A DNA stretch of 64,000 nucleotides from a virus. A program made the translations under genes and the position numbers. The notes beneath the pieces are model-generated. The model had not been told where the DNA came from and did not search any database. It was given only the letters and a program-made list of their open reading frames with translations. Of the stretch, positions 1,108 to 64,000 are shown in pieces (position 1 is the stretch's first letter; each line of letters starts with the position of its first letter). The stretch covers positions 7,228 through 71,227 of IMG/VR virus record IMGVR_UViG_3300044974_000721; one strand, given 5' to 3'.

Positions 1108-1122
1108 GGTTGGTATAAGAGG

Positions 1123-1659: not shown

Positions 1660-1661
1660 AA

Positions 1662-46180: not shown

Positions 46181-46210
46181 TAACTAAACATTTTTTATCT
46201 TGTCTGTTTT

Positions 46211-46238
46211 AAAGGTAGCCGCGCGGCTACCTTTTTAA
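46211..46238 (+). terminator. Perfect 24-bp palindrome with T tail (terminator-like)
   Basis: aaaggtagccgcgcggctaccttt followed by tt, downstream of the ATPase gene. Confidence 0.75.
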
Positions 46239-46341
46239 TTTCTCTTACTTTTTTCTATACGTTAGTTTAGCTATTACTTTCTAGCTCCTCTCCTCCCTCT
46301 CTCCTTTCATCTCTTCTACCCTCTAATACTATCTTCCCTCT

Positions 46342-46905
46342 ATGTCTAATACTAATCTTTTTTATAATCCTGTCCTACCTTTAACTTATAGCCCTATTGC
46401 TTTAGAACTAGTCTCTGCTTATAAACTTAACGAGGTAACCCCAACTATCGACTTTACTAAGTATTCTCTTTATATCCAACCACCTCGTTCTTCTCGCCCT
46501 TCTATTCAACACTACCTCCCTCAACCTTTTCGCATTCAATTCCCTTCAAACGGTATTCTTAAACTACAACTTGTCCCATCTGATATTTACCTTCCTATTG
46601 GTCGCTACCATGTCTCTTACTATAAAGAAGATGTCTCTAAACCACTTGATAAACAAGTTTGGATTGTTCGTAGCCGCCCTCTTATCTCTTCCTATTCTTT
46701 CTTACTTAATACTAACCCCTACTTTCTCCCCCTCACTTTCTGGGACGTTCTCTCCGTTAACTCCTCTTCCTCTTTCTCTTACGAGAATAATATGCTTAAT
46801 GTCTTCTCTGACAACCTTCTTAATACTATCATCAATATTACATTTCAACCTGCTCTAACTGTCGACCAGCTGGTTGAATATAACATAAATACACTACCAA
46901 ATTAA
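46342..46905 (+). CDS. Hypothetical protein
   Basis: 187-aa ORF upstream of the second giant gene. Confidence 0.65.
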   Translation: MSNTNLFYNPVLPLTYSPIALELVSAYKLNEVTPTIDFTKYSLYIQPPRSSRPSIQHYLPQPFRIQFPSNGILKLQLVPSDIYLPIGRYHVSYYKEDVSKPLDKQVWIVRSRPLISSYSFLLNTNPYFLPLTFWDVLSVNSSSSFSYENNMLNVFSDNLLNTIINITFQPALTVDQLVEYNINTLPN

Positions 46906-46968
46906 CAGTACTGGTTATTAATAAACAACTTATACTTATAAGCTTAGGATTAAGGGTATAAACATATA

Positions 46969-49900
46969 ATGCTTCCATTTATTTCAAAACACTTGATGGC
47001 TCCATTAGGTCTGGCAGCAACAGCAGGTTTAGCTGGTGCTACTCTTTTTTCGTCTATGACTTTAAATTCAGACCCATTAAAACCAGCAAAGTCATCCTTT
47101 TATTTAGCATCTGAGTTTGTACAAAACTCCCTGTTCCTTAACCCTTATGAAAATCTATATAATCAGTACGGTCAACAATACTCTCCTAAACTTCAAGGGC
47201 GTTTTAGCCATGATTACAGTACATTCTTTCAAGATGGCAATTTCTTTAAACCTATTTCCGTAAGTGATGATACTTATGCTTTGCCTTCCTTTTCTCAATC
47301 AGAAGAAAGACAGCGCTCTATTGATGCTGCCGATAAGCTTTTTGAGCGCGATAAATATATAACTCCTTATGAAAGAGCCACTTATACCTCTGTTGGTGCT
47401 TTATCTGGTCTAGCTTTAACAGGTGTTTTATACGGTGCCAGCAATCTTATTGTTAAAACTGGAGACTTACCTACTAAAAACTATACAGCATTTCAGTATC
47501 TATTTGAAAGCGAAGTTATTAATTATAACAAAAGTAGTGGCACCTTACCAAAACCAACACGCTATTTACCCACAAATTTTATGCCTGCTACTATAGGCGC
47601 TCTTACTGGTTACTCTGTCTCTGGTACTGAGGGGGCTGTTATTGGTACTATGCTTGGTAGTTATATAGGGGGTTATCTTCTTATGAAGGAAGAGTATGGA
47701 CCTCAACTTAAACCTCTTGTAGCCGGTGCTTTATATGGGGCCTTAGCGGCTAATATTATTTTGGATAGTTTAAAAACGTTTACCCAGGAAAAGACTCAAT
47801 CTCAATCCTTTACGTCCTCTTCTTTAATCAAAAACTCTGGTATTAAATCTCGATTACTTAACCAAGATTTTTATAAGTCATCTAACCCTTATTCCTTTTC
47901 CTTTACAGAGTTAAAGAGTTTAGTTGATAGTAGCGTTACTAATAACATTTATTATACCAACTTTGTTGATAATACTTATAGTCCTGGATACAAAAGCGTT
48001 AAACGGTTAAATTTTAAAGATACTATATTAAGTTCTTATAAACCTAACTATAGCGCTAATAAGCTGTATAGAATAGAAAAGGGACAAAAGAGTAATGAGC
48101 TAAAAACTGAAACTAATGTATTTGATTTTCTTAAACCATTACCTACGGCTATATCTGCTTCGTTTTTTGCTTCTTTACCTCTTCTTTTAACTGCAGCTTT
48201 GGGGACTGAAAAAGCTGACTCTGTTAAGAAAGAAGTTAATAAAGGACTTGTCAATTTCTGGAATATCTTTGGAGCCTATGAAGCTCGACAAGCAAATATT
48301 AAAGCTCAAGGTGAGATAGTAGAAAGCAGCAAGGGCTTATTATCTAGTCTTAATGAAGGAAAACTGTCCGGGAGTTTTAAATCTACTCTTACTCTTGGTA
48401 AATCAACTTTTAACTACTTTAGATCCGAAGTTGTAAAAAACCTTAAAGCTCCTTTACCTATTGCGGCAGGTGCTCTTGTATATAGTCTACTATCTACTTA
48501 TCAATATAATAGGTCTTCTGAGTTAGTAAAAGACATAGATAAAGATTATATACCTAGTAATAGTATTAAACTTAATAACGCTCCTTTAAATATTTTAAGT
48601 TATGCAGCACTTGGGGGAGTTGTTGGGGGAACTACAAGTCATTTTTTATCAAAGTTTCCCGCCTATAGAAAGCTTTCTTACAGTCTACCTTTTACTAGTT
48701 TAATAGGAGGAGCTATAACTGGGGCTGCTGAACTACAAAGGGCAAATTTAATAAATGATAGCAGCTCTGTCTTACCTAATACTCTTTTAGGGACCACTAT
48801 GGGGTTTGGTTTAGCTTTTCCCTTAACCCAATATTCTAAAAGCTTACATACAAAAGGTGAAAAGTACCTTAAGGGTAATACTATCAGTTCTGCTCTATTT
48901 GGCTCTATTATTGGGGCTATCTCCGGTTTTATATCTTCATATCAATTTGAATCAAAGTCTGAAACTCCTAGTAATTATAATAAAGACCCTATAATAGTAA
49001 TCAATCAAGCAGTAGCACCACCAGGTACAGACAAAGAGACTGTTAATTATGCTAATGAACTTATTAATAACTCAAGATACTTAGCGGAGGGTATGGCTGT
49101 TAGATTAGACAATAGTCATATATTTTACGATTCAGGTACTATAGGTACTGGTTTAATGAGTTTTCTTAAAGGCTCTAAAGATAATACTCTTTTAGGTGCC
49201 TTTTATGAGCTGTCTTCTGATAAAGAGTTTTTAGGACTACTTGCTACTAAAGCGAGAGATGAAGGTATTGTAGTTTCTATGGGAGGTAATATTTCTTTTA
49301 CAGGTGGTCTTGAAGGGGCATATAAATCTATTCTTAACTCTTTTGGGTTAGGTGGACCAGGCGCGGCTATTACTTATAAAATTTCTGAGGCTATCAACTC
49401 AGTATCTAAGAATATGACAGGTAAAAATGTCTATAAAACTTTAGAGGAAAAGGCTAATCCTAATACTGATAGTGATGATAGCGGCGCTAGAACTATTAAT
49501 TCTTTACTTTTCGGCGGACTGGGTTTTATTACCGCGCCTACTATGACTAAAATTATATCTAATATATACTTTAATCAGTCTACTTCTGGTATCTTCTCTA
49601 ATAAGAACGTATTTAGTAGGCTGTTTATAGGCTTTACATTTGGCACATTAGGGTATAATTTTGCATCTACTACTCTAGATAGTACACCTTATAGACATAT
49701 TGAACAGGCAGCAGAGTATTTTGCGGGTACACCTATAGATTCTCTTAAAGCTTATGGTTTAACTATTGGAAAAAATGGACCTAATACTAAAAACTATTTT
49801 ACAGGTAATTTTATAGACCATATGTTAGCTATGTTTAGTAGAACCACTTTACTAAGTGGTATAGACGTAACTAACAAGACTACACCGTTCGCTTTAGGTT

Positions 49901-52900
49901 ATAAATACGACCCTTCAAAGAAAAATGAAATATATAATTACATCCTTCATTCTAAATTTTTTGTAGAAGAAGAAGGTTATTCGGACCGATATTTTGTTTC
50001 TACAGGTAATCTTGAAACTGTAGTCCAAACCTCAAGAGGCGCTCGTAAACAACTTAACTATGCTATTTATGGCAAAGACCCCCAAATAGCTAAGGATCTA
50101 AGAACTGTAGCTAAATTTGTAGCTACGGCTAATACTTCCGATGATCTTAGTACTCTTACTAATCAACTTACATCTAAAAAAGTTTCTATCGGCGGTTTTG
50201 GTAGTAACTCAGACCAACAAATTATTAATCTTATACGCGAATCTAAAGGACAGATCTACGGCGTTATGCCTTACGCTTCAGATGTAGAAATAGCTAATGC
50301 CTTTGTTCAGGCACAAAAAGAAGGTAATGATGTAACTGTATTTATTCAAAATCCTTTAGGTGTAAAAGCAGGCGGTAGTCAAGTAGCTAGTTCTAACTTT
50401 GCTAGAATCCTATTTGAAGGCGGAGTTACTATCCAAATACTTCCAGAAGATTCTACTTACCTTCCCCACGCTAAAGTTATTGCTTCTAAAGATACTGTTC
50501 ATCTAGGTAGTCATAACTTTTCCTCTAACTCTGCTCGTCACGTTATTGAAGCTAGTCTACAGTTTCGTTCTTCTAATATTGGCACCCCGGTTATACAAGC
50601 TATAAAACGAGATATATACACTACAGGCGCTATTGCTTTAAATACAAAAAACTATAAGGAAGTAGTAGACAAAGCTTTATCTTCTAAAGATTACTTTACA
50701 CTACGCTTGTATAAAGCTTTATACGGTACTAGCAACTTAAAGGAAAATCAAACAAGAATATCTAATAAAAATGATTTAGTAGAGTTTCTTACCCCGGATT
50801 TACTATCTATAAGTGGGATTATAGATAGTAACTTAAATTCAGGCGCTGTCTTTCTTCCCACTTCTATCCCAACTGATTATTACTCTAGACACGGTTTTAG
50901 TGCTAAACCTAATATCTATCAACATATTCGCTACGGTCTTGATAAACAATCTTCTATTGAACGATTCTCTGCCTTCTACGCTGATTTTGCTCTTCAACAT
51001 CCTTTGACTAAAGGCCTCGGCTCTTATATTAATTCTGTATTTCCTAACCTCTATAAACCTAATGATGGTTTATTTACTACTGTTACTAAAGGGTTAGGTC
51101 GCTTTTTAGATACTATAACTGGACACTACACTAACATGTATTATAAGGACTTAAGACAAGGCCTTATATATGGGACAATAAAAGATTACCATAAGTCAGC
51201 TTATCGTAATGATAACAGAAGAGGCTTCTTTGAAAATACTTTGTCTACTGTTAGCTCCGCTATGTCTACTACAGTTTACTCTTTAGCTTTTTACTTCGGC
51301 GTAACACATAGTATGTCTATTGCTAGAGCTAAATTTGAAGATATAGGCACTGATTATATATCTCAATTAAACTTTGACTCCACCCCAGACTATATAAAAA
51401 AAATATACTTTGACTCTAGCTCTATAAAACGCTTTTCTCTTGTTAAAGATATAACAGATACCTTAAAAACAACATCCTCTACACAACTAGGTAAGGTTCT
51501 AGATCAGTATTATGATTACATTATTTCAGAAGCCTATTCCTCTACACCCACTACATCCTCTACAACTACTTCCGCTATAAAATCTATAGACTCTGATATA
51601 AAAACTCAGTTTGATACTTTAAGAACTAGCACTGACGGTCATAATCTTATTATAGAGCATGATATAGATTCTGTAAAAGAGGCTATAACTAATAAAAAAA
51701 TAGACGTTAATGATTCTTCCTCTATAGCTAAGTTTAAAAAAGAAACTTTTGGTGTTGATGATACTAATATTACCTTCCGTACAGTTGAAGGTAGACCGGC
51801 ACTCTTTAATACTGTTAGCTACTTGAGAAACATTGATAACAGTCATTTTAATAATATCATTGAACCTATTATCAGAGATATAGCTATATACGACTCAGCT
51901 GATGCAGCTAGTTTTGAGAATACATTATTAGCCCTTAAACGTAGTATCTCTGGACCTATAACACTTAGTTTTAAAGAAGGAAGCGATTATAAAGACCTTT
52001 TAGATGTTGAAAACTTTGGTTATAAACGGTTAGAGAATATAGCTACTCAGTTAGATAAATTAGCTAGTTTTATCCCCGCTAATCCTTTACTTTATTACAA
52101 ACCTTATCGGCAAGCTCGTGGGGTTACTACTCTCTCTCAGTATAATATAAGCCCCTCCGGCGCTATTTTTAAAGATAGTATATCCCTAAAAAGCCTTATT
52201 GGCCCAGGCTTCTCCGGTCTTACTTCTTTTAGTACCCAAGTACTCCAACATATTAAAACTGTTAAGTTAGATAAATTTGTATCAGAGAGCTTTAACTCCT
52301 TTGTCCTACAAAATAAACTTATTAAAACTGAACTTAAAATAGCTAAGGAAGTAGATAACCTACTAAAACTAAACACAGTGCCTGTAGATTTACTACAAGA
52401 CTTAACTGATTTTAACAACAGTACTCTTACAAGTAAATCTCTAAAAGAGCTATCAGATAACCTTAAAGATAATGTAGGAGAAGCTCTAAAAGACATAATA
52501 AATGATTCTAAACTATCTACGCTAATCCTTCAATATACACAAGATTATGACGCTTTTATATCTAATACTAAATTTTATGGGAATGATTCTATAGAAAAAA
52601 TTAAAGACAACAGTAATATAGGTTTGAATAGAACTTTACGTTCTATACTTTTTTCTGCGGGTCCTATTCTTATTCTTGACCGTTTGCTAGACCCTCACTT
52701 AATGCAAAACAACGGCGACTTAATATCTCAAATCTTTGCTGACTTTAATCTTACTAGAACTAAAGATGATAAACGTGTTAGTCAAATAGAATTTACTGGT
52801 GGCATACCTTTCTACATTAAGTACCCCGCTATACTTTCAGGTTTTGTTACTGGGGGCTTTGCTTTACCTGCTAGACAATCAACACATAGTGTTATCTCTC

Positions 52901-55900
52901 TTCTAAACACTACTTTACAGTCTCGTTACGCTAATGTAAACTTATCAGGCTTGACAGGTGCCGCAGATAGTTCTTTACTGAATGAAGCACACGAGTATTT
53001 AAAAACTCTATCCTCTTCTAGCTCTGCTGCTATTGACCTTGACTCTCCCGTGTCTAAATACTTATTTGGAGGGGGCGGTCAAAGACTTAAATTAAAATTC
53101 GGATATATGGGAGCTTTTGTAGGAGGCTCAGCGGCTCTTATTGCAACACAAACCTTATTTAATTTAACGGCTTTAACTCTTAACTTTATTAAATGGGCTG
53201 ATAAAGGTGAGGGTCAAAAACCTAGTTCAGAAGAAATGGCAGCCGGCCTAAAAGTTATGAGCATTATTAAAAGGTCTTTAACTGCACAAAAAACCTCAAA
53301 AAAAGCTACTGTTGATGAAATAGCTTCTAGAGAAGTCTTACGGTTAGGAGCCCTTAATTTAACTTATGGGCGGGATAAACGTTCCTCTTACGTCTATACT
53401 TTCTCTAGTCAAATCCCAACACCTTTATTCCAAGCTACTCTAGTTAGTAAACTTGACAAACAAGGTAATGCTCTTACCTATGGTTTAGGGTTTCAATTTT
53501 TTCCTATTCTAGGCTCTGGTTCTATCCCTACTGCTCCTTTTAGCATTAGCCTTAGACCTTTACGTAATACTATTGCTGATAAACGCTTATCTTATATCAA
53601 TTATTTGTCTGGAACTACTTCTAATGAATACGAAAAGGTTAATGAATATAAAAGACAACTTAACCATAGCTTGGGTGTATCCCTATTATCATTGCCCGGA
53701 CAGTTTATATCAGTCGATAAAGATACTACACTTTCTGCTGCTATTAACTTCTTGGGGGCTACTTCTTATCTCTCTAGCCTTGCTTCTAAAATACCTAAGT
53801 CTGTAAGTCCTTCTGATAAAGCTTTTAGATATACTACTGCTTTTGCTTTTGATACAGCGCGTAACATAGTTGGCTATAGTCAAGCATTAACTATAGCTCT
53901 TCCTAATGCTTTCTTTAAGGTAGGTACTTCTTTACTAGGTAATCCTAATATTAAACCGTTAGGCCCTGCATCTCGTAAATTGGCTCCTTTTATTCTTTCT
54001 TATATGTATGCTTCTGGTATTACTGCACCAGAAGGTTCTTTCTCTCATATAGGATCTCATATAGCCAACCCTGTAGATGCTGAATGGTATCGATTTATTA
54101 CAGCTGTAGCACCAACAACACTAATTTACGGGGTTGGGTTACACCAGGCTAAGGTCTTTAGCAAAGCGCAAGATATGGCTCCTCTTGATACTAGTACAGA
54201 TTTCATATCTAATAAACAAAGAGCAATAAAAAACATTTACGATGCAGCAGTTAAGTCTATAGACCCTAAGTTAGTTGCTAACTATGAGCTTCCTTTAATA
54301 AGAACTGCTAACTTAAGGTTAAATATAGCCGCGCGCCGTATTTTCTCTATAACCTCTCTTCTTGTCGCCGGTGGCCTTATTAGCAACGTTAGTAACCTAA
54401 AAATCGGATTCCTTGATATTATTTCTGATTCTCAATCTAAACAGCTTTCTGAAGTAGAACGCGTTCTTCAAGGGGATAACTCTAATCTTGTCCGTTACCG
54501 CCCTTCTAATGTTTTTGATGCCGCTATCTCTTATGCTGACTTCCTTGCCCGCTCTGTTACTGGTATCTTTGGTGTTCAAAATCTATTCTATAGAGACGAC
54601 CCTAATGCTTTTTTATCTCTTGGCGGCCCTTTTGGTATCAGCGAAACTCAACCTAATAAACATAGAGATTATGTCCAAAACCAAGCCTCATCAGCTGATA
54701 TTAGTGGCTCTAAAGTAACTCTGGCAGCCCAATTAGCTAGCGCTGATTTCTCTATGCAGCTTAAAGCTATGCTAGACTTATCTGGCTCTAAAGACAAAAC
54801 CTCTTCTCAAGTCTTTACCCGCCTTTTTGCTTACCCCAGAAAAGATTTTGCTAAAATAAGCCGCTACATATCCCAAAGTGAATACTCTTTAATTAGAAAC
54901 CGTAGCGGGGCTTTTCAACTAGCTATCGCTACCCGCGAGTACCAATTACAACACCTTAAACACCAAAGACCTATTGAACTAGCTTATACCTTACTTAAAG
55001 AACTTTACGCCGCCGGTAGAATTAATTCCCCTAAAACCCGTATTCCTGTTACATACACCCCTCTGGACTCTCTTCCAGATATGTTTGCAACTGTATACTC
55101 TACCCCTTCAGATTCCTCTCTCGATCTTTCTACCCGTATTACTCGACTTTTAAAAGGCTTTACTTCTAAATCTTCTACCTTTGTAGCACTAGAAGATATA
55201 GCTATGCAACAATATAAGGAAATGAGTAGCCAAATACCCTTTATTGGCTACTTTATTGATAACTTTAAAGATATCGCTAGCTCTATTTCTGGTAATACTA
55301 CAGCCTCTAGCGGCTTTGCTTTAGCTCTCCAAGCAGTTCCTTTAGCTACTTTTGCTCTTGGTGGTGTTTTCTCTGTTGGTTCACAACTTCTTACCTCTTT
55401 ATATGCTGTTCAAACAGGTAACATACTTAAGTCTTCAAGAAATGAATTAGAAACAGTTAGGTCTAATTTAGAACGTATTAAAAAAGCACCGTTTGGGTAT
55501 GACCCTACTACTAAAAAGTTGAAATTTAACAACACCCCTATAAATGAGGCTATTATTGATGTAACTAATCCTACTCTTTTGTCGTCTAATATACAAACTG
55601 CTCATACTAGTTTGTTTGACACAAACTTTATTGATAATGAAATAACTTCAGATATACAAGAAATTTCAACTCTAAAAAATTCACTAAGAACTGCTACCGA
55701 CTCGTCTCATATTGCCTCTATTAAGAGTGATATAGAAACAAAAACACTCAGCTTAAAAGATAAATTGACAAAAAAACTAGAATATTTTCTAGATACTGAT
55801 ATTAATATTGGCCCCTCTAAATCCTTAAAAGTATCCGAGGTTTTGCAAATAACTTCGGAGGTTAAAGATAATCTATTGAGTAAAGCTAACAATATACTCA

Positions 55901-58900
55901 CTGAATTAACCTCTATTATAGAAAGTACTCAATTAGAAGAAGTATTAGACCCTCGTATAAAACGGGCTTTGGGTCAAGCTTTGATAGAGTTACATAAAGA
56001 TATATACAGTCAAGCACATTTACCACCTACAACTAAACCAAATGTGCAAACTAGTAGCTTGTCTTCAACTGTAGCCCGCGCTGATAAAACTGCTTCTATC
56101 CCTGTCAAAAATCTTAACTCTATTATTCAACAACGCGGTATTACTGGCCTTGTTTTACAATCCTCTCAAGGCGCTTTTAGTCTAGCTTCTAAATTCCAAG
56201 ATTTACATGGCCCTTATGAAGTCCTCTCTGGCTTAACTTTAACTATCTCCTCTACTAACCGTCTTCAAAAATATCAGGGTGCTTACGCTGCTTCTTCTGG
56301 CTTAATAACTACAGCCGCCGCTTTTGCGGCTATGTTGGCTATTAACAGCTTGGGTGTTAGCGCCCTTCCTCTTATGATTGCTATGGGCCTTGGTGTTTGG
56401 GGCTTTACTTCTTGGGATTCTACTTTTAATAATAAACGCTTTACTAGGTCAGCTTTATCTACTATGCTTGCTATAGATAAAGCAGTATTTGACCCTGTTC
56501 GCTACGGCACGGCTAACCTTTTATATAATCTCCCTACTATACCTATTTTAGGCCCCCTTTCTCACGCCCCCTTCTCTCTGTTTGACTCTTTTCTTAATAA
56601 CATTTACTCCTCTTCTTTTGTATCAGAAAACCCTAACGTTCAAATGGGTTTATCTTTCATTTTGCCTGAAACACCTCAAAGGTATGACCTCTTTAGAATG
56701 AGTAAAGTCCCTAACTCTTATACCTTTGCAGGCCCTAGACAAGAAATCCTCTCTTACGATGAATACCTTAAAACTATTGCTAGTAACTATCAACAAAATG
56801 TACAACGCGCAGCTTCATACAAACCTAATATAGACCCTCTTGTTCATCCTTACCTTCAAGGATCCGTTTATACAGGTAATCCATTTGTAGATGAACCCTA
56901 CCTCTCCCCCTCTCGGGGAGGAGGCCGCTCTCGCCTTTTATCTAAATTTGCTAACCCCCCAGCTATCTCTAATATCCTTCGTATTGCTATTGGACTTCGA
57001 TCTTCTCAGTCAGACTTTGACACTTATGGCGCTTCTATTTACCGCTCTTATAATAAACCTAAAAACCCTCTTATAGGTTTTGGTCAGTTCGCCTTTCTTA
57101 ACGCAGCGCGCGCTGGGTTTTTTCTTAATAACAATATCTTTAGCTTCTCTACCAAAACTATTTCTAAAGCTTCTAGCCTTTCTTCTCAATATCTCTTTGG
57201 CCCTGTTACTTCTTTTATAGCTGATATCTATAAAAAACTTTACATTCAACAAGGATTAACTTGGGTTACTAACCAATTGTCTCCTTTTGTAAAAGGATCT
57301 TTATTTACTAGTTTAATTCTTGGCGGTCTCGAATACTACCAACCTAATATGAATCCTTTAAGTCAATTAGGTATTAGTATACTTGGCGGCTCCGCACTAA
57401 CAATTGGTTTGCATCAATTAACTAAATATCTTCGGAACAACGCTTTAAATCCCTCAGTTATTTCTTCTTCTAACACCTTTGGAAGTTTCATAAAAACGGT
57501 AAAAAACCCCTACTTACAAGGAGTAGGTTTACTCCTTGGGGTCTCTATGCTTGGAGGTAGCTCGTTTATAAACGATAATGATAAAAATAGTAAACCTATT
57601 AAACCTTTTCTTCAAGTTGCTGGCAGTATTTTAACTGCTTCTGCAGGTGTACCTTTAATACTATCCTCTGTAAAAAACTTTAAATTACCTAGTTTTTTTG
57701 GCCCCTCTATCGCTAAACATACACCTTTAGCTTTATTAGGTTTAAGTGTTGGTTATTTTACTTATAATAGCCTTAACTCTAATACCACTAAGGATAAAAC
57801 AGTTCCCTTACTCGGCGGAGTAGGTTCTGGTATTATATCTTATGTCGGAGGTTACTATACCCTTAAAGCTCTGCAGAAAAATATTTCTTCTGTAGGAAAA
57901 GCAGGCCTATTTTTACTTAGCTCCTCTTTAGTAACCGGGTTAATACGTTTTCCTGTTAAGAGCATTCTACCTCAATTAAACGAAACAGAACAAATTTTAA
58001 CTTCCTTTGCTATAGGCTCTGCTCTTACTTTTGCTGCATCTCGCACTTTACCTCGCTTAACAAACCTTATTTCTAAAACAGCAACTACTAGTTCTCTTAC
58101 TTCTTCTTTTTCTAGTACTACTACTAGGACTAACAGATGGTTTAATAATATAAAAAACATAAAAGGTAAAGTTTCAGGGTACTTAGCTAGAGGCTTTAAT
58201 TTTGCCGGTAACTTAGTTAAGTTTATGGGCAACCCCGCTACTCTTACTTTAATAGACTACCAAATCCTTTCTAGTAATGTAGACCGGCTTAACCAGCTAG
58301 ATAAATATAAAAAAGATAGACTAAATTATAGAGCTGATTACGCTAACGCTGTTAGTGCCGCTTCCAGCTCTTTAGCCTTTAGCATTTTAGGTGGCGGCAT
58401 CTCTAAAGGTAAAATTGGCGGCGGTAATATAAAATCTATGGCCATTGCTTGGCTTTTATCTTCGGTTATTGGTTATGTCACTGGACAATATGTAGGTACT
58501 ACCGCAGGGGATGCCGCTTACTACGAATCTAAAAACTTACCCGATAAAAACCAAACCAATTTTGTTTATAACATTTCTAAAAGTTTAGCTCCTCTCTTTA
58601 ATTTTATCCCTAAAGCTAACGCTGATAGTAATAATAATACCCCTACTACTTATACTAAAGATACTGTTTTAGGACTACTTAACGTAGCTTTCATAGCTAG
58701 TACTGCTTTAAATTTATTTGCAGGTATTCGCTATTGGAAGGCCACTGCAATTTCTACACCCGGTAGCTCTTTTTCTAGCTCTACCCCCGGCCCTGTCCCC
58801 GGTGACGACGGAGATATCCCAGGTAGCTCTACTCCTCCTACGAGCCCCGGTGACGCCGCTGATAGCTCCCGTAGACGCTACCACCGCCGCCGCTACGGCC

Positions 58901-61900
58901 CCCGTAGCGCCTCTAGTAGCAGCGGTGCTAGCTTCTTTAAAAGAGCCAGTAGTCGCCCTAGTAGCAGCGGTGGCTCCGGCCCTGTCCCCGGTGATGACGC
59001 TGATAGCTCCCGTAGACGCTACCGCCGCCGCCGCTACGGCCCCCGTAGCGCCTCTAGTAGCAGCGGTGCTAGCTTCTTTAAAAGAGCCAGTAGTCGCCCT
59101 AGTAGCGGCGGTGGATCTTTCCCTGGGTTCGACGTTGGCGTTGCCCCCAAGGTCGAAGACCTTGAGTCTTTTACTTCCTCTACTCCTAATAGTAAATTAA
59201 AGATTAAATATTTAGAAACAGATAGACTTAAAGGTACAACTATTGCGTCTCAAACTGTTAATTCTGCCGATGAAGTTTATAATAAACTAACTACTAAATA
59301 CAGTTCTAGTTTGGATGGCAAACAATATGACAAGCTATCTGATATAGTTAAAGAAAAACTGACCCCTAGTGTTATTCATGGGGGTAATGAATTTGTTACT
59401 ATGGGGTATGTAGATACAACTGGTAATTACAGCGCGCTTTCTGTCTCATATCAAGATACTAAGAGTGGCAGAATTGTAACCAAAATCTTTTACGCTGAAG
59501 GTACAGATAAATCCGTTATGGATTCTCTTATAAAAGAAAGCGGCGTAGATACTAAAAAAGACTGGCGGTCTTTTACTCACACATCCCCAGATTTTAAAAC
59601 CGTTGATTTTACCCCCTCTTCCCCTCTTCAACCTTCTAGTGCACAACCTCCTACCCGTAGTATCCTAGTATTAGAAGAAGGTAAAGGTATACAAGAACTT
59701 AATAATAAGGCTTTCCAACATAGTAGTAACCTAAAACTTGGTTATGTTCATTGGATTCATAACCTATCTACAAATAATATAAACTTGGATATAGAAAAAA
59801 AATCCGCCGGGGCTGTTTTTTCCCCTTTAAAAGGGTTTGGTCAACAGCTTAGCTTACTTATACATCAAACTCTTCATCTAGATAGCTTTTACAAACCTTT
59901 TAGTATACCTAACACACCTAACCCGGAACCACACCCCAAAAAATCGGGGGCGCCAGCTACAGCCAGTAAAACACCTATACCGGAACCACCTCCACCCCCA
60001 AAACGGGCGCCAGCTACAACCAGTAAAACACTTATACCGGAACCACCTCCACAAGAAGTAAAAACCATACAAAGTGCTAGCAAACTGCAGCCCGGCGCTT
60101 CTATTAACATAGATAACCTTCGTATCGATGAGTTTAGTACTGGACTACAACTTGTCCCTGGTAAAGGGTTTGTAGGGGGAAAAGAAACAGAGTTTGTATC
60201 AGACGGTTTTACAGGGAAATATGAAAAGTCAACTTTAACACCGGAAGATCATTCAAAATTACTAGGACAAGGTAGTAAATTTGATACCTCAATTTTAAGA
60301 GTTGACTCAGAGATGGGCGCAGTAAACATCAGATCTCCAGACAAAGTTAGCCCTATACTTACAGGCACAGTTGTAGAAATAGATGGAGAACAAAGAGCTT
60401 TTCTATCTGTTACTTCTGCCTTTAAAGACAACAAAAATAGATCAGGCCCTGGGGCTAGAATATTTACTGCAAAAGGTGGTAATGAGTCTTTATTAGCTTT
60501 AGTAAACTATTGGGAAGAACATGGAAATCCATCTTTTGAAATGGACCCTAATAGAGCACCACAACCTGTTTTTTACAATACTACTGTATCTTTAGATTTA
60601 GTCTCGTACTCTTCAGACACTAATACTAATCTTTTAAACCCTGGTACTCTTACAGTAAAACAAGCCGCGAGCCATAGTTATTTACTAGCAGAGAGCAAGG
60701 GTAATTTAGCTTCTTTTGAATATAACGCTATCCCTTTAAGTTTATCAAGAATAGCCAAAGCTCAAATTATACAACCAATAAACGAGAAATCCTATGAGAT
60801 TATAAGTAAGGACCAAAAAAAAGTAAAACCTATACATCATTACAAAAACTTTACTCAAATTAAGACTAGCTTAAATGCTATTTTAAACAGACCAATTCCT
60901 AAAGAGCAAGACATTACATTTTTCAAGTCTGAAATCGCTAAGAATCCAAACTTAAAACAAGACATCTTACCACTACTTGAAGGTCAGGGACTAGATCAAA
61001 TTCGTAAGGAGTTTAAGAAAACTACTCTTAAAAGCCAAATTGCTTTTAGTACAAGGCAGATTAATTTACTATCTTTCTTTAACGAGATTACTTCAGATAC
61101 TGAATTTAAGGATTCTTTTTCTGACTACGTTACAAAAGCTAACCAGAATGCTAGAGGTTTATCTAAAGAAGCTAAAGACAACGCGCGCGCTATGAAAACG
61201 TGGCAAGATACCTACAATAAATTTAGCGGCGGCGGCGGTCCTAGTAGTAGTACATTTACAGGCGAGTTTAGTGCTGAACAAGATCCTACGTTGTCTTGGC
61301 TAGATAACTACGATGATAGTAGGTCTATACACGCAACGCTAATACCTTTTGATTTTCAGTATTTTAATAAACAATTTAGGTCGCTATTAAGTTTTGGAAA
61401 ACAAAAGATAGCTCCTGGCATTATTTCAGTCTCTTCTTCTGCTTACTCTTTCTTCTCTGACCTATCTAAATCTTCTTTTAGCTCAATCCGTGCTGCCTCT
61501 AATAAAGTCTCTTCTATCTTTAAACCAAGTCCTCGTCTTTCTGTTTCTTACACTGCACCTCGTCCTTCTCCAACTTATAGACCCAAACCTTTTGGTGTTC
61601 TTCGCTCTCGCTCTCATAACTTATTTAGACGATTCTATAGACCTACTCCTTCCGTCCCTAAAGCTCCTCCTACTCCTAACTCTAATATTAGTATTCAAAA
61701 AGGTGGTGTATTAACTGGGCTAAGTATTTTTGCTCTTAGTACCCTTCTTATAAACGACAAAGACCAAAACTCTCAAGCTCTTAGAACAACCCTTCAAATA
61801 GGTGGCGGCATGTTAGCTGTTACTTCTCTTTTAGCTCCGCTTTTGCAAAATAAGTATGTGCAACGGTCTTTAGACTCTGTAGGCTATCTTTTCTTTGTTC

Positions 61901-64000
61901 ATAACACTCTTCAAACTATCTCTTCTGTTCTTACTCTTAATAGAGAAGTCTCCTTAAAAAATGATAACCCGCTGGTTTCTACTTATCGCCGTTTGGGTTT
62001 ATTAGACCCACACAATGATTCTTATTATTATGATATCAAATCAGCTTCTAGAAGAATGGGGTCTACTTTAGTAGATATTATGGCTAGAGGTATAGACTCT
62101 ATATTCTACCCAGCTAACTTTTTTCTAGGTATAGCTGTATCTTCATTAACTTCTTATTTTAGTGGACCTGTAAAAGCTTTAGTAGGAGATTACCTAGAAA
62201 GTGAAATGCTTAAACACGGTATGTACAACGCTACCCCCCGAGCCCTTGCTAATTTATCCAAAGAAGCCGGTGAGGGCGCAATGGCAGGTGGCGCTATAGG
62301 GGCCGCCGCTAGTGTTTTGGCTCTTCTTGGACTAGGCGCCGCTAGTGCTTTGTCCGGCGGTACTGCTCTTCCTGCTACTGTCCCTGTTATGTTAGGTATT
62401 GTTGGTGGTAGCACTGCTGTAGGCGCCGGTAGTGGTTTTCTAATTAACTTCCATGCTGGCACTAATCGCTATAGCCAACAACGACGCATTTCCAGACTTA
62501 GATCTTATGCTATTCAAAACGCTATCGCTAGCTCCTACGCCTCTAATTCCGCTTCTAGTTCAGATATCTACGATAATCAAGGTTTAGACCCCCAATTCTA
62601 TCCGGGTAGTATCTCTTTTTCTAATTATGGACATAAGGATCCGTCCGGAGGTAATAAGGATCAGCAATACAACATAAGCTCTTTTGCAGAAGCTTATCCC
62701 CACCATGCTGTATTTAGAAGAAAGCGCAGCCAATCTCTTTTTTATGTAAACAGCCGAGGTGAAAAAGTACCTCATGAAGTACAAGAACATATAGGACCAG
62801 ACGGTACTACACGCGAATTTGTAAAGCTAGATATTACTCTTCGTAAGGGCGGCCGTATGATAGGTGTTGAATTGCCTAGCTTTGCTACCGGTTATGCAAA
62901 AGTAGTCAGTGCGGGTAAAAACTCTTATGTGAGTATATATAAAGATCGGGAGATGACAAAATTTCTAGGTAGGGCGATACATATACGAGCTACAGTACGT
63001 ACAGGGCAAAAGGTTTTCTTTGGGCAGATAATAGGTACACAATATCCAGATGGGGGTAACACTCATACTGACTTAACTCTTTTACCAGAAACTTATGACC
63101 GCTATTTTAAGGCTTTAAAAACTGGAAATTGGGGTAATAACTTACCCCCCGCTCTAATTCCACCACCTTCTGCACAACCTCAAAACCAATCTACTTCAAC
63201 TGTTACTCAAGGACGTAACCTTTTAACACCAGAACTATATAATAGGCTTACACCTAAAGGTAAGCTGTATTACGACAATCTTAGAACTAATCCGGCTATA
63301 CTTGCCCTTGCAGATGCTGTAGCGCGCGCGGAAGGGACCGATTTTAGGAATAACTCTGTAAATTTTGGATATGGATATATTATTGGTGGCTCTAACATTG
63401 AACTATCTAAACTTAATAATATACAACACCCTTTCGTAGCCCCAGCTGGGCATACTCCTTTACGACGTAGAGCGGACCACCTGTCTACGGCATCGGGTAG
63501 ATATCAAGCTTTAGATTTTGTTTATGCAAGAGTAGCAAGTATGAACCATAATGCCCCAGACTTAGCTAAAATGTTTGAAGGTGTAGACCGCCGCATACCT
63601 ATAAACTCTTTTTCTCCAGGTGTCCAAGATTTAATGTTTATTTACTCTCTTGAAAAGCGGGGTATACTACAGGATGTAATTGGTGGAAACTTCTCAGAGG
63701 CTGTTCTTGATAAACTATCCAGAGAATATACTAGTATTACTATTACTAGAAATTATGGGGGGCATGGAACTCCTGAAGGTAGGAAAAATAATTTCATTAG
63801 GTTCTTAATGGACAGATACAGAATTCGTCAAGCAGAACAGCTTAGGTCTAAAACACCAAATACTAATACACAAGCAAAAACACCTAAGAACTCTACTAAT
63901 ACTCAAGCAAAAACACCTAAGGACACTGCTAATATACAGCCGCGCGCTGTTTTTTCTCCTAAACCTTCTTCTCCTTACTCTCTTTCCCCCCAACAACAAC
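46969..64000 (+). CDS. Giant multidomain virion protein (at least 5677 aa, 3'-truncated): tape-measure/ejection-like, with membrane segments, tandem PLD, M23-like peptidase and lambda-type lysozyme
   Basis: ATG at 46969 (MLPFISKHLMAPLGLAATAGLAG...). Every stretch I translated in this frame is open, and the absence of any ORF-track entry in this frame implies no stop before 64000. Motifs: HSKFF..VSTGN (49948), HAKVIASKD..GSHNFS..E (50467), TGQKV..GQIIG (63001), AEGT/STASGRYQ/FSP..QD (63328-63630). Confidence 0.85.
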   Translation, partial: MLPFISKHLMAPLGLAATAGLAGATLFSSMTLNSDPLKPAKSSFYLASEFVQNSLFLNPYENLYNQYGQQYSPKLQGRFSHDYSTFFQDGNFFKPISVSDDTYALPSFSQSEERQRSIDAADKLFERDKYITPYERATYTSVGALSGLALTGVLYGASNLIVKTGDLPTKNYTAFQYLFESEVINYNKSSGTLPKPTRYLPTNFMPATIGALTGYSVSGTEGAVIGTMLGSYIGGYLLMKEEYGPQLKPLVAGALYGALAANIILDSLKTFTQEKTQSQSFTSSSLIKNSGIKSRLLNQDFYKSSNPYSFSFTELKSLVDSSVTNNIYYTNFVDNTYSPGYKSVKRLNFKDTILSSYKPNYSANKLYRIEKGQKSNELKTETNVFDFLKPLPTAISASFFASLPLLLTAALGTEKADSVKKEVNKGLVNFWNIFGAYEARQANIKAQGEIVESSKGLLSSLNEGKLSGSFKSTLTLGKSTFNYFRSEVVKNLKAPLPIAAGALVYSLLSTYQYNRSSELVKDIDKDYIPSNSIKLNNAPLNILSYAALGGVVGGTTSHFLSKFPAYRKLSYSLPFTSLIGGAITGAAELQRANLINDSSSVLPNTLLGTTMGFGLAFPLTQYSKSLHTKGEKYLKGNTISSALFGSIIGAISGFISSYQFESKSETPSNYNKDPIIVINQAVAPPGTDKETVNYANELINNSRYLAEGMAVRLDNSHIFYDSGTIGTGLMSFLKGSKDNTLLGAFYELSSDKEFLGLLATKARDEGIVVSMGGNISFTGGLEGAYKSILNSFGLGGPGAAITYKISEAINSVSKNMTGKNVYKTLEEKANPNTDSDDSGARTINSLLFGGLGFITAPTMTKIISNIYFNQSTSGIFSNKNVFSRLFIGFTFGTLGYNFASTTLDSTPYRHIEQAAEYFAGTPIDSLKAYGLTIGKNGPNTKNYFTGNFIDHMLAMFSRTTLLSGIDVTNKTTPFALGYKYDPSKKNEIYNYILHSKFFVEEEGYSDRYFVSTGNLETVVQTSRGARKQLNYAIYGKDPQIAKDLRTVAKFVATANTSDDLSTLTNQLTSKKVSIGGFGSNSDQQIINLIRESKGQIYGVMPYASDVEIANAFVQAQKEGNDVTVFIQNPLGVKAGGSQVASSNFARILFEGGVTIQILPEDSTYLPHAKVIASKDTVHLGSHNFSSNSARHVIEASLQFRSSNIGTPVIQAIKRDIYTTGAIALNTKNYKEVVDKALSSKDYFTLRLYKALYGTSNLKENQTRISNKNDLVEFLTPDLLSISGIIDSNLNSGAVFLPTSIPTDYYSRHGFSAKPNIYQHIRYGLDKQSSIERFSAFYADFALQHPLTKGLGSYINSVFPNLYKPNDGLFTTVTKGLGRFLDTITGHYTNMYYKDLRQGLIYGTIKDYHKSAYRNDNRRGFFENTLSTVSSAMSTTVYSLAFYFGVTHSMSIARAKFEDIGTDYISQLNFDSTPDYIKKIYFDSSSIKRFSLVKDITDTLKTTSSTQLGKVLDQYYDYIISEAYSSTPTTSSTTTSAIKSIDSDIKTQFDTLRTSTDGHNLIIEHDIDSVKEAITNKKIDVNDSSSIAKFKKETFGVDDTNITFRTVEGRPALFNTVSYLRNIDNSHFNNIIEPIIRDIAIYDSADAASFENTLLALKRSISGPITLSFKEGSDYKDLLDVENFGYKRLENIATQLDKLASFIPANPLLYYKPYRQARGVTTLSQYNISPSGAIFKDSISLKSLIGPGFSGLTSFSTQVLQHIKTVKLDKFVSESFNSFVLQNKLIKTELKIAKEVDNLLKLNTVPVDLLQDLTDFNNSTLTSKSLKELSDNLKDNVGEALKDIINDSKLSTLILQYTQDYDAFISNTKFYGNDSIEKIKDNSNIGLNRTLRSILFSAGPILILDRLLDPHLMQNNGDLISQIFADFNLTRTKDDKRVSQIEFTGGIPFYIKYPAILSGFVTGGFALPARQSTHSVISLLNTTLQSRYANVNLSGLTGAADSSLLNEAHEYLKTLSSSSSAAIDLDSPVSKYLFGGGGQRLKLKFGYMGAFVGGSAALIATQTLFNLTALTLNFIKWADKGEGQKPSSEEMAAGLKVMSIIKRSLTAQKTSKKATVDEIASREVLRLGALNLTYGRDKRSSYVYTFSSQIPTPLFQATLVSKLDKQGNALTYGLGFQFFPILGSGSIPTAPFSISLRPLRNTIADKRLSYINYLSGTTSNEYEKVNEYKRQLNHSLGVSLLSLPGQFISVDKDTTLSAAINFLGATSYLSSLASKIPKSVSPSDKAFRYTTAFAFDTARNIVGYSQALTIALPNAFFKVGTSLLGNPNIKPLGPASRKLAPFILSYMYASGITAPEGSFSHIGSHIANPVDAEWYRFITAVAPTTLIYGVGLHQAKVFSKAQDMAPLDTSTDFISNKQRAIKNIYDAAVKSIDPKLVANYELPLIRTANLRLNIAARRIFSITSLLVAGGLISNVSNLKIGFLDIISDSQSKQLSEVERVLQGDNSNLVRYRPSNVFDAAISYADFLARSVTGIFGVQNLFYRDDPNAFLSLGGPFGISETQPNKHRDYVQNQASSADISGSKVTLAAQLASADFSMQLKAMLDLSGSKDKTSSQVFTRLFAYPRKDFAKISRYISQSEYSLIRNRSGAFQLAIATREYQLQHLKHQRPIELAYTLLKELYAAGRINSPKTRIPVTYTPLDSLPDMFATVYSTPSDSSLDLSTRITRLLKGFTSKSSTFVALEDIAMQQYKEMSSQIPFIGYFIDNFKDIASSISGNTTASSGFALALQAVPLATFALGGVFSVGSQLLTSLYAVQTGNILKSSRNELETVRSNLERIKKAPFGYDPTTKKLKFNNTPINEAIIDVTNPTLLSSNIQTAHTSLFDTNFIDNEITSDIQEISTLKNSLRTATDSSHIASIKSDIETKTLSLKDKLTKKLEYFLDTDINIGPSKSLKVSEVLQITSEVKDNLLSKANNILTELTSIIESTQLEEVLDPRIKRALGQALIELHKDIYSQAHLPPTTKPNVQTSSLSSTVARADKTASIPVKNLNSIIQQRGITGLVLQSSQGAFSLASKFQDLHGPYEVLSGLTLTISSTNRLQKYQGAYAASSGLITTAAAFAAMLAINSLGVSALPLMIAMGLGVWGFTSWDSTFNNKRFTRSALSTMLAIDKAVFDPVRYGTANLLYNLPTIPILGPLSHAPFSLFDSFLNNIYSSSFVSENPNVQMGLSFILPETPQRYDLFRMSKVPNSYTFAGPRQEILSYDEYLKTIASNYQQNVQRAASYKPNIDPLVHPYLQGSVYTGNPFVDEPYLSPSRGGGRSRLLSKFANPPAISNILRIAIGLRSSQSDFDTYGASIYRSYNKPKNPLIGFGQFAFLNAARAGFFLNNNIFSFSTKTISKASSLSSQYLFGPVTSFIADIYKKLYIQQGLTWVTNQLSPFVKGSLFTSLILGGLEYYQPNMNPLSQLGISILGGSALTIGLHQLTKYLRNNALNPSVISSSNTFGSFIKTVKNPYLQGVGLLLGVSMLGGSSFINDNDKNSKPIKPFLQVAGSILTASAGVPLILSSVKNFKLPSFFGPSIAKHTPLALLGLSVGYFTYNSLNSNTTKDKTVPLLGGVGSGIISYVGGYYTLKALQKNISSVGKAGLFLLSSSLVTGLIRFPVKSILPQLNETEQILTSFAIGSALTFAASRTLPRLTNLISKTATTSSLTSSFSSTTTRTNRWFNNIKNIKGKVSGYLARGFNFAGNLVKFMGNPATLTLIDYQILSSNVDRLNQLDKYKKDRLNYRADYANAVSAASSSLAFSILGGGISKGKIGGGNIKSMAIAWLLSSVIGYVTGQYVGTTAGDAAYYESKNLPDKNQTNFVYNISKSLAPLFNFIPKANADSNNNTPTTYTKDTVLGLLNVAFIASTALNLFAGIRYWKATAISTPGSSFSSSTPGPVPGDDGDIPGSSTPPTSPGDAADSSRRRYHRRRYGPRSASSSSGASFFKRASSRPSSSGGSGPVPGDDADSSRRRYRRRRYGPRSASSSSGASFFKRASSRPSSGGGSFPGFDVGVAPKVEDLESFTSSTPNSKLKIKYLETDRLKGTTIASQTVNSADEVYNKLTTKYSSSLDGKQYDKLSDIVKEKLTPSVIHGGNEFVTMGYVDTTGNYSALSVSYQDTKSGRIVTKIFYAEGTDKSVMDSLIKESGVDTKKDWRSFTHTSPDFKTVDFTPSSPLQPSSAQPPTRSILVLEEGKGIQELNNKAFQHSSNLKLGYVHWIHNLSTNNINLDIEKKSAGAVFSPLKGFGQQLSLLIHQTLHLDSFYKPFSIPNTPNPEPHPKKSGAPATASKTPIPEPPPPPKRAPATTSKTLIPEPPPQEVKTIQSASKLQPGASINIDNLRIDEFSTGLQLVPGKGFVGGKETEFVSDGFTGKYEKSTLTPEDHSKLLGQGSKFDTSILRVDSEMGAVNIRSPDKVSPILTGTVVEIDGEQRAFLSVTSAFKDNKNRSGPGARIFTAKGGNESLLALVNYWEEHGNPSFEMDPNRAPQPVFYNTTVSLDLVSYSSDTNTNLLNPGTLTVKQAASHSYLLAESKGNLASFEYNAIPLSLSRIAKAQIIQPINEKSYEIISKDQKKVKPIHHYKNFTQIKTSLNAILNRPIPKEQDITFFKSEIAKNPNLKQDILPLLEGQGLDQIRKEFKKTTLKSQIAFSTRQINLLSFFNEITSDTEFKDSFSDYVTKANQNARGLSKEAKDNARAMKTWQDTYNKFSGGGGPSSSTFTGEFSAEQDPTLSWLDNYDDSRSIHATLIPFDFQYFNKQFRSLLSFGKQKIAPGIISVSSSAYSFFSDLSKSSFSSIRAASNKVSSIFKPSPRLSVSYTAPRPSPTYRPKPFGVLRSRSHNLFRRFYRPTPSVPKAPPTPNSNISIQKGGVLTGLSIFALSTLLINDKDQNSQALRTTLQIGGGMLAVTSLLAPLLQNKYVQRSLDSVGYLFFVHNTLQTISSVLTLNREVSLKNDNPLVSTYRRLGLLDPHNDSYYYDIKSASRRMGSTLVDIMARGIDSIFYPANFFLGIAVSSLTSYFSGPVKALVGDYLESEMLKHGMYNATPRALANLSKEAGEGAMAGGAIGAAASVLALLGLGAASALSGGTALPATVPVMLGIVGGSTAVGAGSGFLINFHAGTNRYSQQRRISRLRSYAIQNAIASSYASNSASSSDIYDNQGLDPQFYPGSISFSNYGHKDPSGGNKDQQYNISSFAEAYPHHAVFRRKRSQSLFYVNSRGEKVPHEVQEHIGPDGTTREFVKLDITLRKGGRMIGVELPSFATGYAKVVSAGKNSYVSIYKDREMTKFLGRAIHIRATVRTGQKVFFGQIIGTQYPDGGNTHTDLTLLPETYDRYFKALKTGNWGNNLPPALIPPPSAQPQNQSTSTVTQGRNLLTPELYNRLTPKGKLYYDNLRTNPAILALADAVARAEGTDFRNNSVNFGYGYIIGGSNIELSKLNNIQHPFVAPAGHTPLRRRADHLSTASGRYQALDFVYARVASMNHNAPDLAKMFEGVDRRIPINSFSPGVQDLMFIYSLEKRGILQDVIGGNFSEAVLDKLSREYTSITITRNYGGHGTPEGRKNNFIRFLMDRYRIRQAEQLRSKTPNTNTQAKTPKNSTNTQAKTPKDTANIQPRAVFSPKPSSPYSLSPQQQ
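58789..59110. repeat. GC-rich 141-bp tandem duplication encoding Arg/Ser-rich units
   Basis: gatagctcccgtagacgctacc at 58861 and 59002; DSSRRRY(H/R)RRRYGPRSASSSSGASFFKRASSRPSS occurs twice. Confidence 0.95.
59920..60060. repeat. Pro-rich ~57-bp repeat (APAT.SKT.IPEPPP) linker
   Basis: gcgccagctaca...agtaaaacac.tataccggaaccacctcca occurs twice. Confidence 0.85.
62690..63130 (+). other. M23-like peptidase domain within the giant ORF
   Basis: YPHH...KLDITL...LPSFATG...RAIHIRATVRTGQKVFFGQIIGTQ......THTD. Confidence 0.6.
63290..63740 (+). other. Lambda R-type lysozyme/lytic transglycosylase domain within the giant ORF
   Basis: ALADAVARAEGT...GYGYIIGG...QHP...STASGRYQ...FSPGVQD...KRGIL..V..G....LSREYTSI aligns by eye with lambda R (SEGT, GYDVIVGG, DHP, STAAGRYQ, FSP.SQD, WASL). 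Confidence 0.85.

Follow-up and report, generated by a model that had tools for sequence, protein, structure and literature searches.

A 64,000-nucleotide (nt) stretch of a viral contig (IMG/VR record IMGVR_UViG_3300044974_000721, positions 7,228 to 71,227; hereafter the window) ends in 17 kb that look like a gene desert. An earlier note on this DNA had proposed that the region is one uninterrupted gene of at least 5,677 codons, read in frame +1 from ATG 46969 off the window end, and that it encodes a tape-measure/ejection-channel polyprotein of exceptional size. Translation of 46969..64000 (+ strand; codons 1-5677 of 5810 of what we call the giant gene) gave 5,677 residues. A search for an in-frame stop found none, where ~354 would be expected from base composition (log10 P(no stop) = -158.9), and the other five frames contain 279-796 stops over the same interval. 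Upstream, the closest in-frame stop ends at 46953; the first start codon after it is ATG 46969, and a purine-rich AAGGG/AGGA ribosome-binding-like site lies 13-25 nt 5' of this ATG. The description of the region as a desert of short shadow open reading frames (ORFs) is right, because only two ORFs of at least 100 amino acids (aa) overlap the giant in other frames (119 and 160 aa). The window ends where the 71,227-bp contig ends, with no terminal repeat; the gene is therefore truncated rather than finished, its last 133 codons lying beyond the contig end. Circular wrap-around of the ORF was considered and ruled out, as the contig is simply cut.

Beyond the contig end the gene can be followed in other records. 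A recorded protein of 5,810 aa (P0002) is identical to the giant and full length, and a second of 5,131 residues (P0003) is 71% identical. Another viral contig, L001, is syntenic with the window and carries a complete 5,171-codon giant with its own stop (76% identical). The gene is also covered by contigs assembled from four further metagenome runs (lake-water, plankton, freshwater and subsurface), and every indel reported inside the ORF in these contigs keeps the frame: -3 at 51641, -3 at 58116, +3 at 61227 and +3 at 63474, together with three +1 insertions inside 17 nt (60311-60327). A search of GenBank phages found no near-identical DNA. Overall, what looked like a 17-kb desert is a single genuine gene, encoding a phage protein of 5,810 residues.

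The giant gene closes a same-strand late operon and is a structural-module gene of a tailed phage, which supports the earlier note on this point. The surrounding virion module comprises a portal (16501), a prohead protease (19376) and a major head protein (20414), followed by a 1,184-aa sheath (26269), a tube-like gene (29865; 37% identical to gp092 of Microcystis phage Ma-LMM01), a baseplate wedge (39593) and the large terminase (TerL; 43408). Two small genes separate TerL from the giant. The head protein is 30-32% identical to heads of Microcoleus phage My-WqHQDG and Microcystis Fukuiviruses (10/10 matching records), and CheckV-type completeness of the contig is 50%. The contig is half of a large contractile-tailed phage from fresh water, probably a cyanophage, that is distantly related to Ma-LMM01 and My-WqHQDG. 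The order terminase, one or two small genes, giant was found in all six records inspected (window, L001, two further viral contigs named L004 and L005, My-WqHQDG and Ma-LMM01, where it reads gp118-gp119-gp120).

The giant belongs to a family. An exhaustive HMMER search with aa 641-1560 returned 25 cluster representatives, comprising 21 giants (3,529-7,866 aa) and four short proteins (354-432 aa) with an HKD domain of the phospholipase-D (PLD) superfamily. BLASTP among the giants showed collinear similarity, with 22-27% identity over 2,000-3,000 residues corresponding to aa ~1,000-3,400 of the window protein, and their multiple alignment contains many invariant G, D, R, Q and Y positions. Members were located on L004 (190 kb, 96% complete) and L005 and in three named phages. 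The My-WqHQDG member (4,151 aa) matches across the HKD region (E 3e-30) and in further collinear patches; Ma-LMM01 gp120 (2,898 aa) is collinear with family protein P0013 (E 5.7e-28) and is found by the family hidden Markov model (HMM) at E 6.5e-11; and MaMV-DH01 has a matching open frame of 2,900 residues. In all three phages the gene again follows the terminase and small gene(s); the proteins differ from the window protein in being shorter, and identity to it is low and patchy. With gp120 included, the family spans 2,898-7,866 aa, so the claim of exceptional size needs qualifying: the protein is indeed a giant, but 5,810 aa is mid-range for its family. By tblastn against phages, the N-terminal 3,000 residues of the giant and the L004 giant matched My-WqHQDG alone, and the C-terminal 3,000 residues matched none. 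Database annotations seen for family members all read 'hypothetical protein', and querying a protein atlas with the core of the giant gave scores of at most 0.83 and no lead. The literature searched yielded no paper describing the family and, among the listed papers that mention ejection proteins, none that also mentions phospholipase D. The accessible text of the My-WqHQDG preprint does not contain 'giant', 'largest' or 'tape measure', and the available main text of the Ma-LMM01 transcriptome paper does not mention gp120 or gp080.

Along the chain, an optional N-terminal module (aa 1-712; 46969..49104, +) holds five hydrophobic segments (at aa 9, 144, 247, 394 and 638). L001, P0003 and one contig of run X8 lack it; My-WqHQDG, P0015 and P0018 retain conserved patches. 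The N-termini of two close relatives differ by a block of 640 residues, and their C-terminal thirds are ~100% identical.

A two-lobed HKD domain follows at aa ~960-1225 (49846..50643, +). Pfam PLDc_2 scores 44.1 bits there against a cut-off of 27, and the HxK motifs lie at H994 and H1167. Both HxK...N motifs are invariant in 9/9 aligned sequences (H104/K106/N124 and H277/K279/S291/N293 in domain-alignment numbering), with the Asp of the second motif one position later than in the classical HxK(x)4D. With two motifs and PLDc_2 above its cut-off, the domain is, as judged from its sequence, an intact member of the PLD superfamily. Used as a profile against the PDB, it matched nucleases (Nuc 2.5e-16, poxvirus virion nicking-joining enzyme 2.1e-14, PLD3/PLD4 exonucleases ~1e-13) and lipid enzymes (phospholipase 7e0m 8.2e-16, cardiolipin hydrolase, phosphatidylserine (PS) synthase); a PDB search with aa 661-1280 as a single sequence found nothing. 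As these nearest solved relatives mix both, the substrate may be phospholipid or nucleic acid. The enzymes compared (Nuc 1byr, 7e0m, PLD3/PLD4, mitochondrial cardiolipin hydrolase) share the two HxK...N motifs (profile E 2.5e-16 to 1e-10) and differ in that the HKD domain of the giant is embedded in a 5,810-residue protein. In a blastp comparison, 13 of the 21 giants had an aligned HKD region, and the alignments of the remaining eight begin only at ~aa 1,224.

The family is defined by a conserved core (aa ~1230-3400; 50656..57168, +). It comprises ~2,400 residues that are collinear and mostly alpha-helical across the family. Two AlphaFold models of the core, built from 18-row alignments, were mostly helical, with mean predicted local distance difference test (pLDDT) values of 60 and 54 and a single confident helical-bundle sub-domain (aa ~2819-3014). 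Foldseek searches with both models returned nothing at E <= 0.001. The best VIA-align scores were Z 8.4, to 57-residue helical hairpins, and Z 7.6, to a GldM/PorM-type transmembrane helix plus helical bundle and to dynamin/Mx stalks, all of them under the noise threshold that the tool states for helical folds. Across 16 distant members, hydrophobic segments keep their position at aa ~1890, 2046, 2453, 2783 and 3119-3133.

The many Gly/Ala-rich hydrophobic clusters that the earlier note had described are there: 19-20 windows reach a 19-residue Kyte-Doolittle mean of >=1.4, and the two peptides it quoted were placed correctly (aa 208-234 at ~nt 47590, aa 5103-5131 at ~nt 62275). Seven giants tallied contain 11-20 hydrophobic segments each, and gp120 contains 14. 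One segment-rich stretch (aa ~3400-3950; 57169..58818, +) shows only 36-49% identity between relatives that match at 92-100% in its flanks, which indicates recombinational mosaicism or diversifying selection. A C-terminal cluster of such segments lies at aa ~4941-5160 (61696..62448, +). Two in-frame tandem repeats were also detected: a 141-nt unit in 1.9 copies (58845..59114, +; a 47-aa Arg/Ser-rich unit, present once in P0003) and a 33-nt unit in 2.4 copies (63861..63938, +) forming a Thr/Lys/Pro-rich linker. Overall, the giants form an uncharacterised and unnamed family with a large helical core of no recognisable fold, Gly/Ala-rich segments, near-zero Cys and a fixed genomic position.

The earlier note had also placed enzymatic domains between the hydrophobic clusters, and besides the HKD domain two more were detected, at the C-terminus. 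An M23-like peptidase domain spans aa ~5288-5388 (62830..63132, +). M23 peptidases carry the zinc/catalytic motifs HxxxD and HxH; in the giant HxxxD is present (E-H-I-G-P-D) and HxH reads H-T-D, comparable to H-L-D in P0009. Pfam M23 (PF01551) gave 13.6 bits (E 0.081), below its cut-off of 28.7, and an iterated HMM joined the domain to M23 of eight giants, of the tail proteins described below and of Ma-LMM01 gp095 (E 4.7e-31). A lambda-type lysozyme or lytic transglycosylase-like domain, which we take to be of family GH104, lies at aa ~5426-5620 (63244..63828, +) and was also recovered by the iterated HMM. It matches the PHROG endolysin family phrog_90 (E 3.3e-11) and, as a profile against the PDB, lambda lysozyme (3d3d/1am7, E 4.8e-4) with the EGTD (catalytic Glu) and GRYQ motifs aligned; similarity to lambda R thus places it in the lambda-type lysozymes. 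Whole-giant Pfam and PHROG scans gave only PLDc_2, endolysin-type matches and PHROGs of unknown function.

Proteins of 2,130-3,168 aa contain the same lysin pair, at 33-46% identity to that of the giant. Besides a 255-aa self fragment, seven relatives of the pair were listed, and the five longest (P0007-P0011, three of them rescanned with Pfam) carry the tape-measure domain TMP_3. One of these is from Calothrix sp. PCC 7103 and lies among lambda-like minor-tail and gpJ-type genes; they are genuine tape-measure proteins of cyanobacterial prophages. Their similarity to the giant is confined to the lysin pair, both by BLAST and by hhalign (probability 90%, E 1.5e-6; next match probability 0). Among 20 giant relatives, M23 occurs near the C-terminus in eight and the lysozyme in two. 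Ma-LMM01 differs from the window in this respect: gp120 lacks both lysins, and also a full HxK...D motif by regular-expression search, and the lysozyme and M23 pair forms a separate gene, gp095 (annotated 'metallo-endopeptidase'), inside the baseplate module. The lysin domain thus moves among a baseplate gene, real tape measures and the giant, which argues that all three act in wall penetration at entry.

Cys is absent from all 5,810 residues of the giant. In the window's 28 remaining ORFs, 97 of 10,608 residues (0.91%) are Cys, giving P ~7e-24 for zero in the giant by chance. This avoidance extends to the 20 relatives (4 Cys in 104,573 residues), to gp120 (0) and to the five TMP_3 proteins (2 in 14,651). 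Among the ORFs of G002 (a 96%-complete relative) that reach 350 aa, just three lack Cys, namely a 558-aa protein and two giants, the second of which has a counterpart in the window. Cys avoidance may be a signature of proteins that cross a narrow tail channel unfolded into an oxidising compartment.

The second giant gene of the window (1662-15113, -; 4,483 aa) is oriented divergently from the head module and encodes neither Cys nor Trp. It contains internal ~55-residue repeats, long coiled-coil-like stretches and a weak PLDc_2 match (E 9.7e-4, below cut-off) with a single D-N-D-G-D motif at aa ~3202. Its family also includes a Cys-free 3,211-aa protein in G002 and, by weak homology, ORF102 of MaMV-DH01 (3,562 aa), members being collinear or weakly similar; Ma-LMM01 gp080 has the same length and position. 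The family is cysteine-poor and, by eye, coiled-coil-rich, with 1-4 hydrophobic segments that are mostly C-terminal. A paralogous origin of the two giants was rejected, as BLAST found no similarity between them. The second giant is a candidate ruler of tail length at least as good as the first, or else a candidate second ejected protein. Downstream of it lie two genes (268-1107 and 1123-1659, both -) that match the PHROGs of Ma-LMM01 gp111 (phrog_37225) and gp107 (phrog_1394); the latter PHROG is labelled 'virion structural protein' and has a weak Pfam match to a baseplate-wedge tail-fibre-network component. As gp107 and gp111 of Ma-LMM01 lie in the tail-fibre region further downstream and on the + strand, where gp108 and gp109 are DUF4815 fibre-like proteins, modules appear rearranged between these phages.

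A conventional ruler might also be encoded by a 738-aa gene after the tube, with 2 Cys and a coiled-coil-like tail; its homologues had no names and no Pfam domains. PDB sequence searches found nothing for the second giant or for three proteins of the tail region (546, 646 and 738 aa), so that calling the 646- and 738-aa genes hub and spike is a sequence impression only. In Ma-LMM01 the homologue of the 646-aa protein is followed by gp094, annotated 'baseplate protein', and no similarity between gp094 and the 738-aa protein was found.

Directly upstream of the giant, homology and gene order define a conserved small gene (46342..46905, +; 187 aa, no Cys). It is 38% identical to a 194-aa ORF upstream of the L004 giant, a 188-aa ORF occupies its slot in L001, and it weakly matches Ma-LMM01 gp119 (E 0.01). 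Library scans gave no family match and the protein atlas no lead (scores <=0.83). This gene could possibly encode a dedicated partner or chaperone of the giant. The intergenic region before it is variable, as contigs from all four runs diverge around 46209-46244; at ~46311, contigs of runs X8 and X9 have a 25-nt insertion relative to the window. Between the terminase and the small gene, a 287-aa ORF (45317-46180, +) matches the ATPase families AAA_15/AAA_21 (E 2.4e-13 and 3.7e-8). L001 has this ORF and L004 and L005 do not; it may be an inserted accessory gene of the defence or anti-defence type. Two other virion genes are unusual. The tail sheath (26269-29823, +) is long at 1,184 aa versus 774 aa in Ma-LMM01; sheath-family matches cover only its C-terminal ~450-530 residues, leaving an unexplained N-terminal extension of ~640 residues. 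TerL of L004 (5678-9388, +) and of L005 (5666-9382, +) has 1,236-1,238 aa, with the terminase match limited to residues ~577-1030 and the N-terminal half matching phrog_9666, a PHROG of unknown function, which suggests a fusion or large insertion.

These features suggest a model, which we favour tentatively, where the giant is a virion-carried 'all-in-one' envelope-penetrating entry protein of a contractile-tailed cyanophage, with no role as a ruler. It would be made late, alongside the head, tail and terminase genes, and stored in the particle, either inside the head or threaded through the channel of the tail. At infection it would be expelled unfolded via the tail tube. The C-terminal M23-like peptidase and lambda-type lysozyme would then cut the thick cyanobacterial peptidoglycan, the many moderately hydrophobic Gly/Ala-rich helices would insert into host membranes, and these helices together with the large helical core would build or line a DNA conduit. 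The HKD domain would cleave a phosphodiester substrate, either membrane phospholipid or nucleic acid. Delivery of the giant from the virion at entry in any form, a true tape measure included, is probable; its presence in the virion, its ejection, its insertion into membranes and all its enzymatic activities are proposed from the features described above.

Several observations weigh against this model. Both AlphaFold models of the core are of low confidence. The giant matched none of the known ejection-protein families considered (T7 gp14-16, P22 gp7/20/16, N4 gp51/52) by Pfam, PHROGs, PDB sequence search or a fold search with the two low-confidence core models. The M23-like domain is below the Pfam cut-off and has Asp in place of one metal-ligand His, and an iterated HMM detected no lysin pair at all in G002. 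Among solved structures, those nearest to the HKD domain include both nucleases and lipid enzymes. The window copy has a signal-peptide-like hydrophobic segment at aa 9-27 that relatives lack, and a protein with ~20 hydrophobic segments could be inserted into the host membrane from inside. The literature search found no virion proteomics for any phage with a family member, and the MaMV-DH01 paper, in the part available, itself says that mass spectrometry is still needed.

The two halves of the 'tape-measure/ejection-channel' proposal therefore have to be weighed separately. Its ejection half fits, because the lysin pair is common to real tape measures and a baseplate gene and because the giant is Cys-free as tape measures are. 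That the giant is the tail tape measure itself, filling the tube as a ruler before being ejected, with the other domains as add-ons, is a real though doubtful possibility. It would explain the lysin pair and Cys-free composition in common with the TMP_3 proteins, the largely helical nature of both core models and the conserved small gene before it, which parallels the two chaperone genes, expressed by programmed frameshift, that typically come before a tape-measure gene. Nor was another ruler recognised: TMP_3 or PhageMin_Tail domains were found nowhere in 5/5 related records, including G002, and the genes right after the tube also had no tape-measure match. However, the giant itself contains no TMP_3 (PF20155), PhageMin_Tail (PF10145) or other Pfam or PHROG tape-measure family, and its profile similarity to TMP_3 proteins stops at the lysin pair. 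Tape-measure genes conventionally, if not universally, lie between the tail tube/chaperone and baseplate hub genes, whereas the giant sits after the terminase. Tape measures specify ~1.5 Å of tail length per residue, at which 5,810 aa would mean a tail of ~870 nm and the 2,900 residues of MaMV-DH01 one of ~435 nm. The MaMV-DH01 tail, the sole one with a measurement, was reported at 230-260 nm in the available part of its description (PMC9927357), a mismatch that could be rescued if part of the protein is the ruler. A ruler is also hard to reconcile with a 640-residue N-terminal difference between relatives otherwise so close, with a globular two-lobed HKD domain and with 11-20 hydrophobic segments, compared to 4-5 in the two TMP_3 proteins counted; and the second giant is an equally good or better ruler candidate, and the 738-aa gene might be one too. 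A strict ruler role is thus unproven and disfavoured, and the tape-measure half of the proposal is unsupported, for want of the domain and because of the position. The earlier note was thus correct on the gene and broadly so on what it does, and its labels 'tape measure' and 'polyprotein' are unproven.

Two other explanations were considered. The giant could be a non-virion protein of the infected cell, integral to the membrane or facing the periplasm, that acts for example in lysis from within, superinfection exclusion or membrane remodelling. The ~20 hydrophobic segments and the N-terminal signal-like segment would suit such a protein, peptidoglycan hydrolase domains are typical of endolysins too (phrog_90 is named 'endolysin'), and a limited search of the window, on a contig of ~50% of the genome, identified no lysis cassette. 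We nevertheless consider this unlikely, since close relatives lack the hydrophobic N-terminal module and other members carry none at that end, and since the relatives of the lysin pair are tail proteins and the Ma-LMM01 baseplate-module gene rather than lysis-cassette genes. The conserved place beside the terminase at the end of the virion operon also argues against it, and 3,000-8,000 residues would be implausible for an endolysin or exclusion factor. Alternatively, the giant could be head-packaged cargo whose HKD domain attacks host or competitor nucleic acid in takeover or anti-defence, with envelope functions secondary. The top solved HKD relatives are nucleases (Nuc, the poxvirus enzyme, PLD3/PLD4) and the Arg-rich repeat could bind nucleic acid, but lipid enzymes score equally well and what is constant across the family is the helical hydrophobic core and not the HKD region. 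This makes nuclease cargo improbable.

The favoured model, an entry protein expelled from the virion, has parallels in several known systems. Lysin-bearing tape measures include pb2 of phage T5, which combines ruler, membrane activity and M23, and CwlP/YomI of SPbeta. The TMP_3 tape measures P0007-P0011 resemble the giant in being long, helical and Cys-free, with hydrophobic segments and the M23 and lysozyme pair, and they likely work the same way, being expelled via the tail to open wall and membrane. The giant differs from them in having no TMP domain, 3-4 times more hydrophobic segments, an HKD domain, the 2,400-residue core and another position. T7 ejects gp14, gp15 and gp16, the last with a transglycosylase domain. 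According to the parts of the sources available, N4 ejects a virion RNA polymerase (vRNAP) of ~3,500 residues (PMC13434306), and jumbo contractile-tailed phages package ejection proteins in the head, SPN3US with an ejection-protein bolus (PMC5694885). The giant would follow the same logic as these large T7, N4 and SPN3US proteins: storage in the virion, expulsion in an unfolded state, and then a span across the envelope with cleavage of peptidoglycan. It differs from them in showing no detected sequence or fold similarity and in being one chain instead of three, in a contractile-tailed phage; its family reaches up to twice the size of N4 vRNAP. By analogy, then, the giant may work like T5 pb2, lysin tape measures and the T7 or N4 ejection proteins, though it is not a demonstrable member of any of these families.

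A broader and more speculative proposal, which we rate as fairly unlikely, is that this Cys-free family of 3,000-8,000 residues, which every member of a clade of contractile-tailed cyanophages would carry, acts as a single-chain machine for delivering DNA across the envelope and, together with the second giant, forms a two-giant ejectosome. How the DNA of large contractile-tailed cyanophages passes the thick cyanobacterial wall is poorly understood, and the phages concerned infect bloom-forming Microcystis and the toxic mat-former Microcoleus. Each devotes 9-24 kb of coding capacity to one conserved uncharacterised gene, and in this fragment the two giants occupy ~30 kb of 71 kb. As gp120 of the cultured phage Ma-LMM01 belongs to the family, the hypothesis is directly testable. 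Cys avoidance may serve as a simple sequence marker for tail-expelled proteins, and the lysin pair and HKD domain are candidate envelope-active enzymes against cyanobacteria. If the proposal is true, one chain would combine lipid- or nucleic-acid-cutting, wall-cutting and channel-forming jobs that are elsewhere spread over tape measure, baseplate lysin and ejection proteins, and the two-giant ejectosome would be adapted to the thick, multilayered cyanobacterial envelope.

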